DNA from: Oscillospiraceae bacterium
GTDB taxonomy: Bacteria > Bacillota > Clostridia > Oscillospirales > CAG-272
Direction: 5' to 3'
NCBI GenBank assembly: GCA_015064695.1
Contig: SVRS01000003.1
Location: 15,025-79,024 of the forward strand
Length of the DNA stretch: 64,000 nucleotides
Numbering within the stretch: the first letter of the stretch is position 1; each line of letters begins with the position of its first letter. Below, piece after piece: positions 7,362 to 43,550 of this stretch. The position numbers were made by a program, and so were the translations under genes. The notes beneath the pieces were generated by a model. The model was not told the origin of the DNA. It did no database searches and worked only from the letters and a program-made list of their open reading frames with translations.

Positions 7362-8195
7362 GTGGAAGCACTGACCTACCATCTGGAATCCTTCGACGGC
7401 CCTTTAGACCTTCTGCTCTCCTTGATCCAAAAGAACAAGGTAGAGATCACCGATATTCCCATCGCGCTGATCTGCGATCAATATATGGAGTATATCACCG
7501 AGGCTGAACGGTTGGACATGGATCTGGCCGCTGAATTTATCGTGATGGCCTCCGAGTTGATGCTCATCAAGAGCAAAATGCTGCTTCCCAAGGCCGAGCC
7601 CGAGGAAGAAGATCCCCGGGCCGCCCTGGCTGAGGCGCTGCTCAAATTCCAGCAGGCCAAGATCGCCGCAGCCGTGCTTGCCAAGGCCTATCCCCTTTTC
7701 AGCGGGCGAATGGTCAAGGATACCGACGAGATCTCTGTGGACAAAACATTTGTGGCCGATCAATCGGTTACCTCTCTGTGTTTGGCCGTGCGACGCATCA
7801 TCGCGTATCGCGAGGAGCATCCCATGGCGGACAAGGTTACCTTCACACCGATGATCGCTAAGCCCATCGTCCCCGTAGAGGCCAAGATCGTAGGAATTCT
7901 GCGACACTTTGAGACCCGGGAGCAGGTATCCATGACGGATCTGTTGGAGGATTCCGTTTCCCTACCCGATATGATAGCCATCTTTTTGGGCGTTCTGGAG
8001 CTTGTCAAGATGCGTCGGATCATCTTGATAGAAAACGACGTTGACGGCTCTGTCTTCGGCATGAAAACCGAATTTTTAAAGGGAGAGGATCCCGTGTCCG
8101 AGGATTCACCCTCTTCCGAGGACCTGATCTCGGAAGCATACTGCGACTCTGATTCTGATAACGAGGAGGTAACGACCTATGCCGACCGTTCATAA
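7362..8195 (+). CDS. scpA: segregation and condensation protein A
   Basis: N-terminus FDGPLDLLLSLIQKNKVEITDIPIA is typical of ScpA. GTG start. Followed by scpB. Confidence 0.9.
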   Translation: MEALTYHLESFDGPLDLLLSLIQKNKVEITDIPIALICDQYMEYITEAERLDMDLAAEFIVMASELMLIKSKMLLPKAEPEEEDPRAALAEALLKFQQAKIAAAVLAKAYPLFSGRMVKDTDEISVDKTFVADQSVTSLCLAVRRIIAYREEHPMADKVTFTPMIAKPIVPVEAKIVGILRHFETREQVSMTDLLEDSVSLPDMIAIFLGVLELVKMRRIILIENDVDGSVFGMKTEFLKGEDPVSEDSPSSEDLISEAYCDSDSDNEEVTTYADRS

Positions 8196-8859
8196 CTCGG
8201 CCGAGACCCAAGAGCTTTTGGGCTCGGTGGATGACGTAAAAAGAGCGATCGAAGCGATTCTGTTTGCGGCAGGATATCCCGTTAAGTACGAAAAGCTGTC
8301 CGAGGTGATCGGGCTGCCTCAGAGAGATCTGAGGAATCTGATCTCCCTTATGGCAAAGGAATACAAGGACCGCGGCATTCAGCTCCTTCTCTACCCGGAC
8401 ACCTGCCAGTTGACCACGAAGGAGGTCTTCGCACCTTACATTCGTGAAGCGCTGGGCATCAAGCGTGGCGGCAACCTCTCTGCCTCCTCCCTGGAGGTAC
8501 TGGCTGTTGTAGCCTACAACCAGCCTGTCACCCGCTCCTATGTGGATATCGTCCGTGGCGTGGATAGCTCCTACGCCGTAACATCTCTGTTGGATAAGGG
8601 ACTGATCGAAGCAGTCGGCCGGTTGGACGCGCCGGGCCGCCCCATGCTCTACGGAACTACCGACAAATTCTTGCGGGTATTCGGACTTAATTCCCTGGCC
8701 GATCTCCCCGAGACCGAGGCCTTGGATACCGCCGCCGCCCATGCTCAGGAAAATACCTCCGCGGAGGACGCAACCGCAGAGTCAACTATATCCAACGAGC
8801 AAGATTTCACCCAAGAAGCATCTGATCATCATTCGGAAGAAAAGGAGGACAGCCTATGA
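8179..8859 (+). CDS. scpB: segregation and condensation protein B
   Basis: 226 aa. ScpB-like winged-helix segments (IEAILFAAGYPV, EVLAVVAYNQPVTRSYVD, RPMLYGTT.KFL). AGGAGG RBS. Overlaps the scpA end. Confidence 0.9.
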   Translation: MPTVHNSAETQELLGSVDDVKRAIEAILFAAGYPVKYEKLSEVIGLPQRDLRNLISLMAKEYKDRGIQLLLYPDTCQLTTKEVFAPYIREALGIKRGGNLSASSLEVLAVVAYNQPVTRSYVDIVRGVDSSYAVTSLLDKGLIEAVGRLDAPGRPMLYGTTDKFLRVFGLNSLADLPETEALDTAAAHAQENTSAEDATAESTISNEQDFTQEASDHHSEEKEDSL

Positions 8860-39725: not shown

Positions 39726-39797
39726 ACCTATCCCCATTCTCCGGCCACCACACGAAGAATGGGGATTTTGTTCAACAAAAGCATCGGAGGTTTTATT

Positions 39798-41246
39798 ATG
39801 TTCCAAGAAAAACGCATTCTGGCCGTGCTGCTCTCGGCGTTGCTGATCCTTCCCTGCGTGGCCTGCGCCAATGGAAACGATCCGTCAAGAGAAACTAATG
39901 GCATCTTCACGACCGCTGATTCCGAAAACGACTCCGAGTTTTTCCCCAACGTTGAAAAGCAGGACTACCATGGAGAAACCTTTTGCATGGCCGGCACCGG
40001 CGGAGGAGGCGATTGGTACTTGGCTGACGAATATAAGGCCTCCGACGGAAATATCCATGTGCTCAACAATACCATCTATGAGATGAACACCTTGATTGAG
40101 GATCATTTAAACGTAGAGCTGGTGAGCGGTAAATCAGCCGGTGTCCCCGTGGAAACCGCGATCATGTCCGGCGATGATATCTATCAAGCCCTCGTGCAAC
40201 ACGCCTATTTTGAAGTGGCTCCCTACATCAGCCGAAATTTTGTCATAGATATGAACGAGCTGGACGCGTTGGATTTCAGCCAGTTTTACTGGAACGGTGA
40301 TACCATTGAAGAATTGAGCATCAACGACCACGTCTACGTGGCTGTGGGCGACATCTGCCAAAGCGAGATCCACATGATCTACACCAACAAGGACTTGATG
40401 GCCACCGCCAATATCAAAATGCCCTACGATCAAGTTCGCAACGGCGAATGGACCTTCGATGCGTTGACCGCCATGACCGCCAACCTCTACGTAGACGACG
40501 GTGACGGCCAACAGAACAATAAGGACATCTACGGCTTCGCGGGAAGCTGGGCCGACTGGGGTGCCGTCCTCCCCCAAGCCGCCGATACCTTCGTGGCCTC
40601 AAAAAATTCCGACGGTGGTTTTGATCTGACACTTTACAGCGACCGCACAGCGGAATTTTACGAAAAAGTATTCGCCTGGACGCAGGATGAGAGTGTCCGA
40701 ATCTGGTTCTATGGTGCGCCCGAGGGTGATTCGGTGGACTTCGCAAGCAACCAGGTCTATCTACACGGCAGCACCCTGGGCACCAAGTATCTGAGCGTGG
40801 ATTTCAAGCTGGGTATCCTACCCATGCCCAAGTATGATGTTGCCCAGGAAAACTACTCCCACGTCAACTGGGGCGACGAGATTTTAGTTCCAACCACGGT
40901 CAAGAACCGGGATATGGTGGGTCAGGTGCTGGAGCTGATGAGCTTTTACAGCGGCACTATGGTGCGAGAGAAATACTACGACGAGGTGCTTCAGCTCCGG
41001 GTCTCCGAAGCACCCGACGACCGCGATATGGTGGAGCTGATCTACAATACCATCGTCTACGACCCCGGCATGGTCTATGCCCATGCAGGCGGAAGCGAAA
41101 CGGGTTCCATCTATCCGCTGATCTATACGTTCTATTTCTGTATACAAGACAAAAAACCCAACATTACTTCCTACTATCAATCCTATGCCAAGCCTGCTCA
41201 GAAGCAGATCGACACATTGATCAAAAAGGTATTCCAACGGTCTTAA
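39798..41246 (+). CDS. lipoprotein, probably an extracellular solute-binding protein (no permease genes adjacent)
   Basis: Trimmed to ATG 39798 after GGAGG. Lipobox ILPCVAC. The size and composition resemble family-1 SBPs, but the assignment is weak. Confidence 0.4.
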   Translation: MFQEKRILAVLLSALLILPCVACANGNDPSRETNGIFTTADSENDSEFFPNVEKQDYHGETFCMAGTGGGGDWYLADEYKASDGNIHVLNNTIYEMNTLIEDHLNVELVSGKSAGVPVETAIMSGDDIYQALVQHAYFEVAPYISRNFVIDMNELDALDFSQFYWNGDTIEELSINDHVYVAVGDICQSEIHMIYTNKDLMATANIKMPYDQVRNGEWTFDALTAMTANLYVDDGDGQQNNKDIYGFAGSWADWGAVLPQAADTFVASKNSDGGFDLTLYSDRTAEFYEKVFAWTQDESVRIWFYGAPEGDSVDFASNQVYLHGSTLGTKYLSVDFKLGILPMPKYDVAQENYSHVNWGDEILVPTTVKNRDMVGQVLELMSFYSGTMVREKYYDEVLQLRVSEAPDDRDMVELIYNTIVYDPGMVYAHAGGSETGSIYPLIYTFYFCIQDKKPNITSYYQSYAKPAQKQIDTLIKKVFQRS

Positions 41247-41252
41247 CGACCG

Positions 41253-41272
41253 AAAAGGGCTTTCTCGATAGG
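41253..41272. repeat. left arm of the 20-nt inverted repeat bounding the AT-rich RHS cassette
   Basis: AAAAGGGCTTTCTCGATAGG is 18/20 complementary to 43515-43534. Confidence 0.75.
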
Positions 41273-41426
41273 TTGTCCCCGATTTGAAAAATTGAGTGAG
41301 CTCGGAGACTACCTTGAGCGGCTGAAGATCATCGAATGGAAATTCTACAATCGTTTTCTCTGAGAGGTAATCTTCGGCTATAACGGCAGAGATGGAGTTG
41401 TAACCGATGATAACGGTCTCATTTAT

Positions 41427-42350
41427 ATGAGAGCACGTTATTACTCGCCTGAGATGAAACGATTCATCAATGCGGATATTATTCCCGGCAGACTGTCTAA
41501 TGCAGTAACCCTTAACCGTTTTGCTTATGCTAACGGCAATCCGGTTTCCTTGGTGGATCCGTTCGGTTTGAGTGCGGAAAGAAACGTAGAATCAAACACT
41601 CCTTCTCCTAATTATACACAGGCAGTATTCGTTTCCAATTTTAATTATCTGTTTCCGATCAACATTACTGGACACACACAACTTTATTTTTGGGATGACA
41701 ATAATAAAAAATGGTATATCACAGAATTTACTGGTTCAGACAAATCAACTGCAAAGGTCATTTTTAAGGAAGCCGCTCCTCCAATGTACGACGTCACGAC
41801 AGGTCAATGCAACAAAGATATTGACGGGATCAATTATGTCGTTTTAACTGGTAATTTTAATGATAGTGTTGCATTAGCAGAAGCTTATAAGTCTAATGGC
41901 TTTGGGAGATATAACTTCTTATTCCATAACTGCGCCGATTATACGAATGAGCTCTTGGATGTAGCTAACATTGATGGGATGTCAAGCCAAATACTTAGTG
42001 AAGGAATCACTTTCCCATCAAAACCAATATCGATTCCGGTATTAAGGGAAATTGAACTCTCCGTTTCAGATGCAGTAGATTCGGGCATCGAATGGGCGAG
42101 TGACGGTCTCGTTGATCTTGGAAATTCAATGAAAGGTTCAAACATTGTCGGGGATGTTGTAGGATCTGCTTTGGTCGGAACCGGAAACTTTATCGACGGT
42201 GCTACCAACTTTGTTGGTGACGCGATAGATGTTGTAACCGGTGTCGCCGGTGAATTTGTTGATGATGTTAAGGATGTTGTAGCAACAGTAACCAATGCTA
42301 TTGCCGACGGGGCTCAAGCCGCTTGGGAGTGGATTTCTTTTTGGGATTAA
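41427..42350 (+). CDS. orphan, 5'-truncated RHS core tip fused to a C-terminal toxin domain
   Basis: The homologous frame opens at 41364 just after a TGA (FGYNGRDGVVTDDNGLIY). YMRARYYSPEMKRFINAD...NRFAYANGNPVSLVDPFGL is the canonical RHS-associated core end. No SD before ATG 41427. A 259-aa variable C-terminus follows. Confidence 0.75.
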   Translation: MRARYYSPEMKRFINADIIPGRLSNAVTLNRFAYANGNPVSLVDPFGLSAERNVESNTPSPNYTQAVFVSNFNYLFPINITGHTQLYFWDDNNKKWYITEFTGSDKSTAKVIFKEAAPPMYDVTTGQCNKDIDGINYVVLTGNFNDSVALAEAYKSNGFGRYNFLFHNCADYTNELLDVANIDGMSSQILSEGITFPSKPISIPVLREIELSVSDAVDSGIEWASDGLVDLGNSMKGSNIVGDVVGSALVGTGNFIDGATNFVGDAIDVVTGVAGEFVDDVKDVVATVTNAIADGAQAAWEWISFWD

Positions 42351-42423: not shown

Positions 42424-42999
42424 ATGAAAAAAATTATTGCTTTTGGTATAACGTGCATTTTTCTGTGTCTTTTCAGTTCTTGTACAACTTACAAAAATAT
42501 TACTTTCATTGAAAATGATGGCGAAGAATATTTATTGTATCAAGACAAAAAGTATTATGAAACCCCCATTTTTAACGTAACAAAAAATTATGGAATAAAA
42601 AACGAAAATGACACCGAATTAGGTTGGTATTACAGTTGCCCATTTTCTACTCGGTTTTATTCCGAAAACTTGGAAAGCCCAATTTTTATATACACAATCG
42701 GCAGTGATACAAGCGTGTATCTTAGAGAAGACTATGAATATTCAACTGATACTTTCGTAGTAGAAGAAACATGTGCCGAGATCATTTGGAAAGATATTTT
42801 TAGTAGCGAAAAAAACGATGTTCAATTTTCGAACCCAATTGCAGTAACTCTATACTCAAAACAATATCCTCGTATAAAAACCTCTTTAGTACTATCGTTT
42901 GTTGATGAGAAATGGTATATACGTTATTCTGATTCTCAAGAAATATGGATTCCATCAGATGAATTCTTGAAAATTCTTTCTGACAACGGAATTATTTAA
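42424..42999 (+). CDS. lipoprotein, candidate cognate immunity protein
   Basis: Lies immediately downstream of the toxin module. Lipobox LFSSC. AT-rich. The start could be ATG 42388 or 42424. Confidence 0.5.
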   Translation: MKKIIAFGITCIFLCLFSSCTTYKNITFIENDGEEYLLYQDKKYYETPIFNVTKNYGIKNENDTELGWYYSCPFSTRFYSENLESPIFIYTIGSDTSVYLREDYEYSTDTFVVEETCAEIIWKDIFSSEKNDVQFSNPIAVTLYSKQYPRIKTSLVLSFVDEKWYIRYSDSQEIWIPSDEFLKILSDNGII

Positions 43000-43012
43000 A
43001 AACACAACTGTT

Positions 43013-43043
43013 CAGCCGCACTTTCGGGTGCGGCTGTTTTTTC
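43013..43043 (+). terminator. intrinsic terminator after the immunity gene
   Basis: CAGCCGCAC, TTTCG loop, GGTGCGGCTG, then TTTTTT. Confidence 0.8.
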
Positions 43044-43391
43044 TTGGTACTTGCAAATTCGACCAAAATGTGTTATACTTATGACGGCCTCAGTAGAGTA
43101 ACATCAAGAACCATTAAGAATCTTGATGATGATTCTGTAATTTCTACTGAGACGTTCACGTATGATGCCGCAAGTAATATTACAGGCGCTTCTACTGATA
43201 CGAGCCTTGTTTATGATACAACCAATAGACTTACCTCGTATAACGGTAATACAGTAACGTATGACCTTGACGGCAATATGCTGTCTAACGGTACAATTAC
43301 CTGTACTTATGACTCGGCAAACAGACTCGTTTCTGCGGGAGGTCATACCTACACTTACAACGCTGAAGACGTAAGAATTCGTAACCTTTAA
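43044..43391 (+). pseudogene. YD-repeat (RHS shell) fragment
   Basis: CYTYDGLSRVTS, FTYDAASNIT, LVYDTTNRLTSY, VTYDLDGNML, CTYDSANRLVS, YTYNAEDVRI are consecutive YD repeats. It begins right at a terminator with no RBS and lacks both ends of an RHS protein. Confidence 0.65.
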
Positions 43392-43514: not shown

Positions 43515-43534
43515 CCTATTGAGATAGCCCTTTT
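43515..43534. repeat. right arm of the 20-nt inverted repeat bounding the RHS cassette
   Basis: CCTATTGAGATAGCCCTTTT followed by T runs. Confidence 0.75.
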
Positions 43535-43550
43535 TGGCGTATTTTTTTAC

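Follow-up and report, generated by a model that had tools for sequence, protein, structure and literature searches.

A candidate toxin of the permuted NlpC/P60 superfamily, without a named family, in an orphan Rhs cassette of an Oscillospiraceae genome

The DNA stretch analysed here, referred to as the window, is a segment of 64,000 nucleotides from an Oscillospiraceae bacterium (assembly GCA_015064695.1, contig SVRS01000003.1, positions 15,025 to 79,024). Between positions 41364 and 43391 of its forward strand it contains an orphan Rhs toxin-immunity cassette, in which the truncated tip of an Rhs core is followed by a C-terminal toxin domain, by the gene for a candidate immunity lipoprotein and by a stranded fragment of Rhs shell. 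The toxin domain is very likely a member of the permuted NlpC/P60 superfamily of thiol enzymes, where it lies outside every modelled family. The explanation that best accounts for the whole, i.e. an orphan cassette coding for a thiol acyl-enzyme directed at membrane lipids on the outer face of the target membrane, is considered reasonably probable; all statements on function derive from computation and analogy. The features of the locus are the following, with positions numbered within the window.

41250 to 41272, no strand: left arm of a 23-nt inverted repeat, 87% complementary to 43515-43537, similar to one half of a split terminator hairpin.
41364 to 41570, plus strand: truncated Rhs core tip of 69 amino acids (aa), ending in DPFGL, recognized by its match to TIGR03696 (Rhs_assc_core).
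41571 to 42038, plus strand: catalytic core of the putative toxin, domain residues 1-156, assigned from conservation, AlphaFold, Foldseek and weak matches to hidden Markov models (HMMs).
42039 to 42350, plus strand: C-terminal tail, residues 157-259 and the stop codon, assigned from periodicity, charge, predicted helices and a terminal motif.
42424 to 42999, plus strand: candidate immunity lipoprotein of 191 aa, assigned from toxin-adjacent homologues and an invariant lipobox Cys.
43013 to 43036, plus strand: intrinsic terminator-like hairpin of 10 bp, including 7 GC pairs, followed by a T run, directly 3' of the immunity gene.
43044 to 43391, plus strand: stranded YD-repeat (Rhs shell) fragment of 115 aa, ending in DVRIRNL and a stop codon, recognized by RHS_repeat and TIGR01643.
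43515 to 43537, no strand: right arm of the 23-nt inverted repeat, pairing with 41250-41272.

The toxin frame is open from 41364, immediately after the TGA at 41361-41363, to the stop codon at 42348-42350, for 328 codons. Its first ATG is found at 41427, where the numbering of a 307-aa open reading frame (ORF) starts. The sequence LVDPFGL occupies positions 41550-41570, with DPFGL at 41556-41570, and the variable domain that follows covers 259 aa (41571-42347). An earlier note, prepared from the letters of the window, had placed the end of VDPFGL at 41570, assigned 259 aa to the domain and singled out His83 and Cys169 of the ORF; these coordinates and residues proved exact. In the domain numbering used from here on, His83 is His35 (41673-41675), His167 is His119 and Cys169 is Cys121 (41931-41933), while the other proposed catalytic residues, Glu52 and Tyr114, are encoded at 41724-41726 and 41910-41912.

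Conservation was evaluated on an alignment of 91 homologues, with identity down to about 20%. Solely four domain positions, G34, H35, G94 and C121, are invariant in all of them; W48, Y114 and P156 are conserved in 99% of the sequences, Y124 in 96%, N120 in 95%, T51 in 88% and E52 in 81%, position 52 being occupied by E, Q or D in 97%. H35 precedes C121 by 86 residues in 91 of 91 sequences, which is the permuted order of the dyad. Invariance of both residues goes far beyond chance and agrees with their earlier designation as the catalytic pair. On the other hand His119, the histidine of the 'HNC' signature described in the same context, is replaced by Asn in 77 of the 91 homologues (85%) and is not a conserved catalytic residue; the family motif is N-N-C-x-[DH]-Y, where x is A or L.

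Three features define the permuted NlpC/P60 enzymes: the Cys/His dyad, a conserved Tyr, and a polar residue located about 15 positions after the His; in BcPPNE the catalytic set is formed by H49, E64, Y127 and C154 (PMC3142127). In the toxin domain E52 is found at +17 from His35 and Y114 precedes C121, an order and spacing like those of BcPPNE, as compared along the sequence, which suggests that E52 and Y114 may be equivalent to E64 and Y127. In the mechanism proposed, Cys121 would act as the nucleophile from the N-terminus of a helix and His35 as the general base from a beta-strand; Glu52 would probably orient His35, Tyr114 would probably serve as the oxyanion or P1-carbonyl residue, and catalysis would proceed via an acyl-thioester intermediate.

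A structural model was built with AlphaFold on the 91-sequence alignment, with a mean predicted local distance difference test (pLDDT) of 76, a predicted template modelling score (pTM) of 0.68 and, for most of residues 10-140, pLDDT values of at least 90; modelling from the single sequence gave an unusable result (pLDDT 41). Strands are predicted at residues 15-23, 35-42, 47-54, 62-67 and 87-95 and are followed by helices. H35 opens the strand 35-42 and C121 lies at the first turn of the helix 121-130, a papain-like arrangement as judged from secondary structure. When the model was compared by Foldseek with the PDB, a comparison proposed in the earlier note, the first match was not an unrelated fold: it was TseH, a permuted NlpC/P60 effector (6v98; E 4.3e-3, probability 1.00, 177 columns, target-normalised template modelling score 0.55). 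CLN5 ranked fourth (E 0.3) and nothing else was convincing. In the BFVD viral models, a "permuted papain-like amidase YaeF/YiiX" and a LRAT protein were found at ranks 4-5.

Comparison with Pfam pointed in the same direction, at scores below threshold. Among the 91 members, 23 weakly match LRAT, 20 Peptidase_C97 and 16 TseH (best E 5.5e-5), and the matched stretches, where displayed, cover the region of the NC motif. The consensus of the family HMM aligns to positions 21-114 of the 120 of LRAT (PF04970), with E 5.7e-4; its 20.6 bits, like the 12.7 bits of the window protein itself, fall short of the gathering threshold of 24.3. With Peptidase_C97 (PF05903), for which the threshold is 29.2 bits, the window protein scores 12.6 bits over 21 residues; weak matches to this model are found in 18 of 23 close homologues (best E 0.0012) and extend for about 20-45 residues around the NC motif, at 12-16 bits. 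The window protein gives no match to the TseH model (PF25218), whose 27-bit gathering threshold is unmet. Canonical NLPC_P60, CHAP and amidase models are matched by no more than isolated members of the 91, Lnb_N is weakly matched by two of them, and NCBIfam holds no model for the toxin or its relatives. Of the profile searches against PDB sequences, one detected only a designed helical barrel, which matches the tail, another was dominated by Rhs-core matches, and the one with the consensus detected nothing. In the portion considered here of a catalogue of about 150 polymorphic-toxin domains, papain-like toxins occur solely in the C...H order, with no mention of LRAT, PPPDE or permuted enzymes (PMC3482391).

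These data support two proposals of the earlier note. The domain was described there as a permuted NlpC/P60-superfamily thiol enzyme, kin to LRAT and PPPDE, which is in line with the invariant His35 and Cys121, with TseH as top fold match and with the weak LRAT, Peptidase_C97 and TseH profiles. It was also said to correspond to no named toxin family, and indeed no Pfam or NCBIfam model passes its threshold. The search of Pfam for its LRAT and PPPDE kinship was productive in part, yielding matches that are consistent but weak, none of them at threshold.

The link to Rhs proteins is provided by the match to the Rhs-associated core TIGR03696, which covers residues 5-69 of the 328-aa frame (E 2.1e-15). 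The definition 'canonical RHS', used at first for this gene, holds for the core tip with its DPFGL motif, but the tip is only 69 aa long and no Rhs shell is found upstream of it. A shell, i.e. a YD-repeat region of more than 1000 aa, is absent from the polypeptide, since the frame is preceded by the TGA at 41361 and by an unrelated ORF. The metagenome-assembled genome (MAG) from which the window derives has a size of 2.53 Mb in 81 contigs and is 83.6% complete; no shell-length Rhs gene was detected in the whole assembly, either by regular-expression and ORF scans or by a Pfam RHS_repeat search, and only short fragments were found. Contig C20 carries three of these, tip cassettes of 377-591 aa arranged in tandem, and a 269-aa tip is located upstream on the contig of the window; their identity to the window tip is 35-39%. 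In addition, no promoter-like site is found on the plus strand upstream of 41364, no Shine-Dalgarno sequence precedes the ATG at 41427 and the toxin ORF has no signal peptide.

Orphan C-terminal cassettes are well known for rhs loci. With no Rhs shell, no promoter and no ribosome-binding site, the toxin is an orphan here and is probably neither expressed nor deliverable as it stands; it is probably silent, as a recombination reservoir or a relic, while the immunity gene may still protect its host against neighbours. The arrangement is not an assembly artefact, since the same gene order and the same truncated tip are present, with 97-99% DNA identity, in a locus from a different sample (L024).

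It may be asked whether the toxin ORF has any function at this locus. A decaying or silent rhs remnant, in which the immunity gene at most would be under selection, is slightly favoured, and is compatible with any biochemical activity of the domain. It is suggested by the 69-aa core remnant placed after an in-frame stop and lacking expression and export signals, by the absence from the MAG of anything larger than the C20 fragments, by the low similarity of the other tips, which leaves no recombination partner visible, by the recurrence of the truncated arrangement in the second sample, and by immunity homologues devoid of toxin in other genomes (L022, L023). However, the 328-codon frame has been kept intact within an AT-rich region, together with all the conserved catalytic residues, and the MAG is incomplete, so that a full rhs gene could sit in the missing part. 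Moreover, as described below, one lobe of the toxin was swapped for a divergent but intact allele between strains about 99% identical, which indicates ongoing recombination rather than decay.

Recombination is evident from the comparison of the window with L024. The flanks, the immunity gene, the C-lobe of the toxin and the tail are about 99% identical, while window positions 41583-41899, coding for domain residues 5-110, are replaced in L024 (5157-5506) by an unalignable allele of 350 nt. The swapped region comprises the whole His-bearing beta-sheet lobe and the first helix, and the N-lobe allele of L024 is of the type present in a Faecousia MAG. Half of the catalytic domain was exchanged while the same immunity gene was kept, which argues that the orphan copy still takes part in recombination. 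The exchange also suggests that recognition by the immunity protein may involve the tail or the conserved C-lobe. The idea, derived from locus L007, that the N-lobe subtype sets the immunity subtype was rejected, given that L024 combines a different N-lobe with a 99%-identical immunity gene. A further strain-level difference lies beside the cassette: about 190 bp of the window (39918-40107) are absent from L024, within the upstream 495-aa gene, which measures 350 aa there.

The toxin family is rare. Relatives numbered 23 in a word-indexed search and, at E<=1e-3, 168 when 1.84 billion representative proteins were searched exhaustively with a HMMER profile. The relatives listed are metagenome or MAG proteins, and some of them are Rhs tips or gene-call fragments starting within the Rhs core ("MFAYCLNNPV..."). 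Matches to fish NLR/LRR proteins (P0096, P0153) were low-complexity matches to the tail and were ignored. Full-length Rhs carriers, 1605-2317 aa in size, are represented by P0028, P0035, P0043, P0099, P0128 and P0120. A Pfam scan of the first five of these revealed an N-terminal DUF6531 in three and a Big_2 domain in one, with no LXG, PAAR or other known secretion-system domain. Three loci were confirmed among 185,579 species genomes: a Faecousia MAG (Oscillospiraceae), which is the nearest named carrier, a Clostridia MAG and, for a distant protein, a Chlamydiae MAG. The toxin is found in 6 of 301 genomes of the taxonomic family of the window and in none of four other genomes of the same genus; such a patchy distribution fits a polymorphic toxin. 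Four genomes of the genus were also considered in search of an empty insertion site, but three of these have a flanking ORF with 44-49% protein identity and the fourth yielded none, a divergence too large for a comparison of junctions.

The Chlamydiae protein (L008 6546-8627, 693 aa) contains a distant copy of the domain, 28% identical (GGHAWLEF ... YNLFFHNC), which is preceded by a hydrophobic segment rich in Gly and Ala and by a long linker rich in Pro and Ser; this relative may be directed at the host.

The gene directly downstream of the toxin encodes a candidate cognate immunity protein, which would define a new lipoprotein family. Its ORF (42424-42999) starts with the ATG at 42424, at a distance of 9-14 nt from an upstream AGGAGG; if translation began instead at another ATG further upstream (42388), the product would have 203 aa. 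The predicted signal peptide, MKKIIAFGITCIFLCLFSS, is formed by MKK, a hydrophobic stretch and LFSS, and is followed by the lipobox Cys, encoded at 42481-42483. A homologue is located directly 3' of the toxin in L005 and L006 (28-35% identity), in L024 (99% identity) and, as a further homologue, in L007. In total 37 homologue clusters were found by database search. In 22 aligned sequences the lipobox Cys is invariant, with mostly S, A, G, N or T at -2 and mostly S, A or G at -1. Across the 37 clusters the family has no Pfam domain, no NCBIfam match and no name.

Other immunity homologues, with 53-60% identity, were found in L022 (9001-9549) and L023 (9001-9579), where the 9 kb around them contain no member of the toxin family; in both cases the gene before the homologue is an unannotated ORF, about 211-218 aa long and without a Pfam match. 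They are candidate orphan immunity genes.

Since the candidate immunity protein would be tethered on the outer face of the Gram-positive membrane, the toxin would act there or in the wall, and an extracytoplasmic site of action is rather likely. The same reasoning has been applied to staphylococcal TslA and its immunity lipoprotein TilA (PMC10730906) and to Tox-Act1, whose immunity protein is membrane-associated (PMC12994826).

The tail (residues 157-259) includes 17 Val, 13 Asp, 13 Gly and 12 Ala residues; acidic residues (18 D+E) prevail over basic ones (3 K+R), for a net charge of -15. Its self-similarity is highest at lag 11 (z 3.85) and lag 22 (z 3.64), lags 4, 7, 15, 18 and 29 being also positive. 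In the 11-residue register, positions 0, 3, 4, 7 and 10 are hydrophobic (an a/d/e/h pattern), positions 2 and 5 acidic and position 1 Gly, and a plot of the hydrophobic moment shows one sharp peak only, at 100 degrees. At the DNA level no tandem repeat with a 33-nt period was found in the tail; Tandem Repeats Finder reported only a 9-nt micro-repeat, and the sole direct repeat has a 45-nt spacing. An origin by tandem duplication of a 33-nt unit was consequently rejected. Of the five degenerate 11-mer repeats initially proposed, the periodicity remains, but not the duplicated units: the tail is best described as a continuous amphipathic alpha-helical region with hendecad-like periodicity.

AlphaFold predicts three helices in this region (156-187, 192-224 and 230-258), with pLDDT values of 63-78 up to about residue 210 and of 42-53 after it. 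Across the family, the tail after Pro156 has a median length of 37 aa and varies between 4 and 114 aa, apart from a single outlier (246 aa). Tails which are otherwise unrelated share a recurrent motif at their end, W-[DN]-x-[IL]-x-x-[FW]-[WF]-[DN], as in WEWISFWD (window), VWDAITFWD, IWNKIKFWD, AWNAITSWF and LWTAIKKWW. The isolated tail has no match in Pfam, and single members of the family weakly match LEA_4, ApoLp-III and YtxH, which are 11-mer amphipathic families.

The most economical reading of the tail, although a tentative one, is that of an interfacial membrane anchor, by analogy with the C-terminal anchor of LRAT/PLAAT proteins. The three long predicted helices could instead form a bundle involved in packing within the Rhs cocoon or in release, or a reverse LXG-like secretion-targeting domain, as in TslA, where a C-terminal helical targeting domain follows the N-terminal lipase domain (PMC10730906); the strong negative charge argues against direct binding to anionic membranes. 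Such a role is nonetheless rather unlikely. The domain is always located at the C-terminus of Rhs proteins or Rhs-tip fragments, with no adjacent LXG/WXG partners or type VII secretion genes seen, and the tail is variable in length, with a recurrent Trp-rich end and, in single members, the similarities to LEA_4, ApoLp-III and YtxH. Fusion to a membrane-targeting module is, moreover, common among permuted NlpC/P60 enzymes (PMC3142127). A reverse LXG-like type VII signal, taken by itself, was set aside for want of supporting neighbour genes.

When fold, catalytic residues and the extracytoplasmic location of the immunity protein are combined, the toxin would be a thiol enzyme that hydrolyses or transfers acyl groups of membrane lipids. 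In the permuted NlpC/P60 enzymes the S1 pocket is hydrophobic, fatty acids or lipid substrates are bound, and fusions to membrane-targeting modules are frequent (PMC3142127). In 2026 Tox-Act1 was reported to hydrolyse phosphatidylglycerol (PG) and phosphatidylethanolamine (PE) to lysolipids in a Cys-dependent manner, its His and Cys mutants being non-toxic, and TseH was reported to have phospholipase activity on a liposome-embedded substrate, overturning its earlier annotation as peptidoglycan hydrolase (PMC12994826). In bacteria with a full gene the domain is the C-terminal cargo of a 1600-2300-aa Rhs protein; after delivery it would act on the outer face of the cytoplasmic membrane of the target. 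As a phospholipase A or an acyltransferase it would take fatty-acyl chains off membrane lipids or transfer them, possibly on lipoprotein or lipoteichoic anchors, and the lysolipids formed and the damage to the membrane would account for its toxicity. The enzyme would be kept at the membrane interface by the acidic amphipathic tail and its Trp-rich end, while the downstream lipoprotein, on the same face of the membrane of the producer, would bind and block it. A lipid substrate is, on these analogies, somewhat more probable than not. Conservation, fold assignment, linkage to Rhs, synteny of toxin and lipoprotein, and orphan status are results of the analysis; the lipid substrate, the function of the tail, inhibition by the lipoprotein and the parts played by Glu52 and Tyr114 are proposals.

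Several points weigh against this explanation. PPPDE/DeSI proteins are isopeptidases and canonical NlpC/P60 enzymes cut peptidoglycan, so that the fold does not fix the substrate. The Foldseek E-value to TseH is modest, at 14% sequence identity; no Pfam or NCBIfam model is above threshold for the toxin domain; and the family counts just 168 representatives (E<=1e-3) among 1.84 billion proteins. As for the tail, its last 50 residues are modelled with pLDDT below 50, and a charge of -15 is unfavourable for anionic bacterial membranes, so that cations or a non-phospholipid partner would be required.

The main rival is a cell-wall hydrolase, i.e. a peptidoglycan amidase or endopeptidase like Tse1/Tae, which would cleave cross-links or stem peptides from outside the membrane, with the lipoprotein guarding the wall of the producer. 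Membership in the NlpC/P60 superfamily is compatible with it, a lipoprotein immunity protein suits a wall target as well as a membrane target, and TseH itself was first annotated as a peptidoglycan hydrolase (PMC12994826). This alternative is considered unlikely in view of the permuted order of the dyad, of the lipid-like acyl groups on which the characterised permuted members, with their hydrophobic S1 pockets, act (PMC3142127), and of the phospholipase activity of both TseH and Tox-Act1. The canonical NLPC_P60, CHAP and amidase models, furthermore, are matched by isolated members at most, and an enzyme that works at an interface would more typically have such a conserved C-terminus, amphipathic and ending in Trp residues.

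Less probable still is a protein deacylase or isopeptidase similar to PPPDE/DeSI or CLN5, which would de-lipidate surface lipoproteins or cleave thioester or isopeptide bonds instead of attacking bulk phospholipid. The weak Peptidase_C97 matches, which concern 18 of the 23 close homologues and, family-wide, 20 of 91 members, and CLN5 as fourth PDB fold match point to it, and lipoproteins have been raised as possible targets of Tox-Act1 via Lnb/DUF4105 (PMC12994826), Lnb_N being weakly matched by two members. The Peptidase_C97 matches, however, involve only about 20-45 residues and 12-16 bits against a cut-off of 29.2, TseH is a far better structural match than CLN5 (E 4e-3 vs 0.3), and a cytoplasmic ubiquitin-like substrate is unlikely given the immunity lipoprotein and the bacterial target.

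A more speculative version of the membrane-lipid explanation, held with little confidence, is that these form a distinct Gram-positive family of membrane-interface toxins, acyl-transferases or hydrolases, acting on the lipid anchors of the envelope (lipoteichoic acid, lipoprotein diacylglycerol) instead of bulk phospholipid, in which the acidic hendecad tail with its Trp-rich end would be a cation- or teichoic-acid-dependent dock and the N-lobe would be exchangeable under one immunity protein. If true, it would represent a new target class for interbacterial toxins.

Among known systems, TseH, a Vibrio cholerae type VI secretion effector, is the closest in structure, sharing the permuted His...Cys core, and is an interbacterial toxin which acts outside the cytoplasm, has a cognate immunity protein and has a reported phospholipase activity (PMC12994826). 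The two proteins, however, share 14% identity, and the Pfam TseH model is passed neither by the window protein nor by its 91 relatives. TseH is a stand-alone type VI effector of Gram-negative bacteria, while the window toxin belongs to Rhs cargo of Gram-positive Clostridia, has an acidic helical tail of about 100 aa and is accompanied by a lipoprotein immunity protein of an unrelated, unnamed family. Tox-Act1, a Salmonella type VI effector, is likened to the window toxin by its description and not by sequence: it is a permuted NlpC/P60 polymorphic-toxin domain with essential His and Cys residues, an immunity protein that associates with the membrane, and phospholipase activity on PG and PE (PMC12994826). 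It is reported as a sister group of DUF4105/Lnb, whereas Lnb_N is matched in 2 of 91 members of the window family, and differs in taxa and delivery system.

LRAT/PLAAT proteins (H-REV107, PF04970) provide the best profile match, and in them His, polar residue and N-C motif follow one another as in the toxin; they also have a C-terminal membrane-anchoring region after the catalytic domain, and LRAT chemistry is that of an acyl-thioester phospholipase A/acyltransferase. The match is nonetheless sub-threshold, the toxin has N-N-C-[AL]-[DH]-Y in place of NCEHF, and a hydrophobic transmembrane helix on a metabolic enzyme is to be compared with an acidic amphipathic tail on a bacterial toxin. PPPDE/DeSI (PF05903) and CLN5 are likewise permuted papain-like proteins with a His...Cys dyad, related to the family by weak HMM matches in 20 of 91 members and by the fourth-ranking fold match, but they are eukaryotic isopeptidases, depalmitoylases or transacylases with no toxin context, and the matches are short (12-16 bits vs 29.2). 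The TslA-TilA pair of the Staphylococcus aureus type VII system is a functional analogy only: a Gram-positive extracellular antibacterial phospholipase, with an immunity lipoprotein outside the cell and a C-terminal helical domain after the enzyme (PMC10730906). TslA has an unrelated lipase fold with another active site and is secreted by the type VII system with helical partners, and TilA belongs to the unrelated DUF576 family.

Permuted NlpC/P60 toxins have recently been shown, in Gram-negative type VI effectors (Tox-Act1, TseH), to attack membrane lipids instead of peptidoglycan; with the family described here, which has an immunity lipoprotein family of its own and an unusual tail, Rhs proteins of Gram-positive gut Clostridia would join the carriers of this toxin type. 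The system is not of a new kind, as the toxin class and the likely chemistry are already known from those effectors, and the finding adds to existing knowledge without changing it. As neither toxin nor immunity protein has a Pfam or NCBIfam model, their present annotation is that of hypothetical proteins. How an Rhs cargo with no need to enter the cytoplasm takes its position on a Gram-positive membrane is a question for which the system is conveniently compact, and the natural N-lobe-swapped alleles under one immunity gene allow the mapping of the toxin half recognised by the immunity protein.

The cassette is recognizable also from its composition and borders. From about 41250 to about 43450 the GC content is 0.28-0.45, compared with about 0.55 outside, and the resulting 2.2-kb AT-rich cassette is bracketed by the inverted repeat arms CCGAAAAGGGCTTTCTCGATAGG (41250-41272) and CCTATTGAGATAGCCCTTTTTGG (43515-43537). 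The repeat looks like a terminator hairpin between two convergent genes, split by the insertion of the cassette. The gene upstream is a 495-aa ORF (39759-41246) unrelated to Rhs.

The YD-repeat fragment at 43044-43391 matches Pfam RHS_repeat (4.5e-8) and TIGR01643 (1.5e-7) and matches the N-terminal parts of orphan cassettes found elsewhere (P0010, P0019, P0022); in P0019 and P0022 it opens cassettes of greater length. In P0010, YD-repeat sequence is joined straight to the middle of a toxin of the same family, which identifies it as a recombinant.

Arrays of orphan tips were observed at other locations. On the minus strand of contig C20 (983-6918) three orphan Rhs tips are found in tandem, each followed by a small ORF, and a fourth is located at C56:5225-6031, about 9 kb before the start of the window. 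The C-terminal domains of these four tips open with long Gly/Ala/Ile-rich, glycine-zipper-like hydrophobic stretches; one of them ends in a probable nuclease-like region, and none has an Rhs shell. In L005 (2909-8025), from an NCBI MAG contig, two successive cassettes of the window's toxin family, P0046 (697 aa) and P0019 (444 aa), are each followed by a gene of about 217-230 aa, and a partial third copy matches at 8162-8536. Finally P0095 (184 aa) is a chimera, in which an N-terminal multi-pass membrane region is joined to the last 45 residues or so of the tail of the toxin (...AQAAWDWISFWD); insertion of a cassette into a different gene has probably left this scar.

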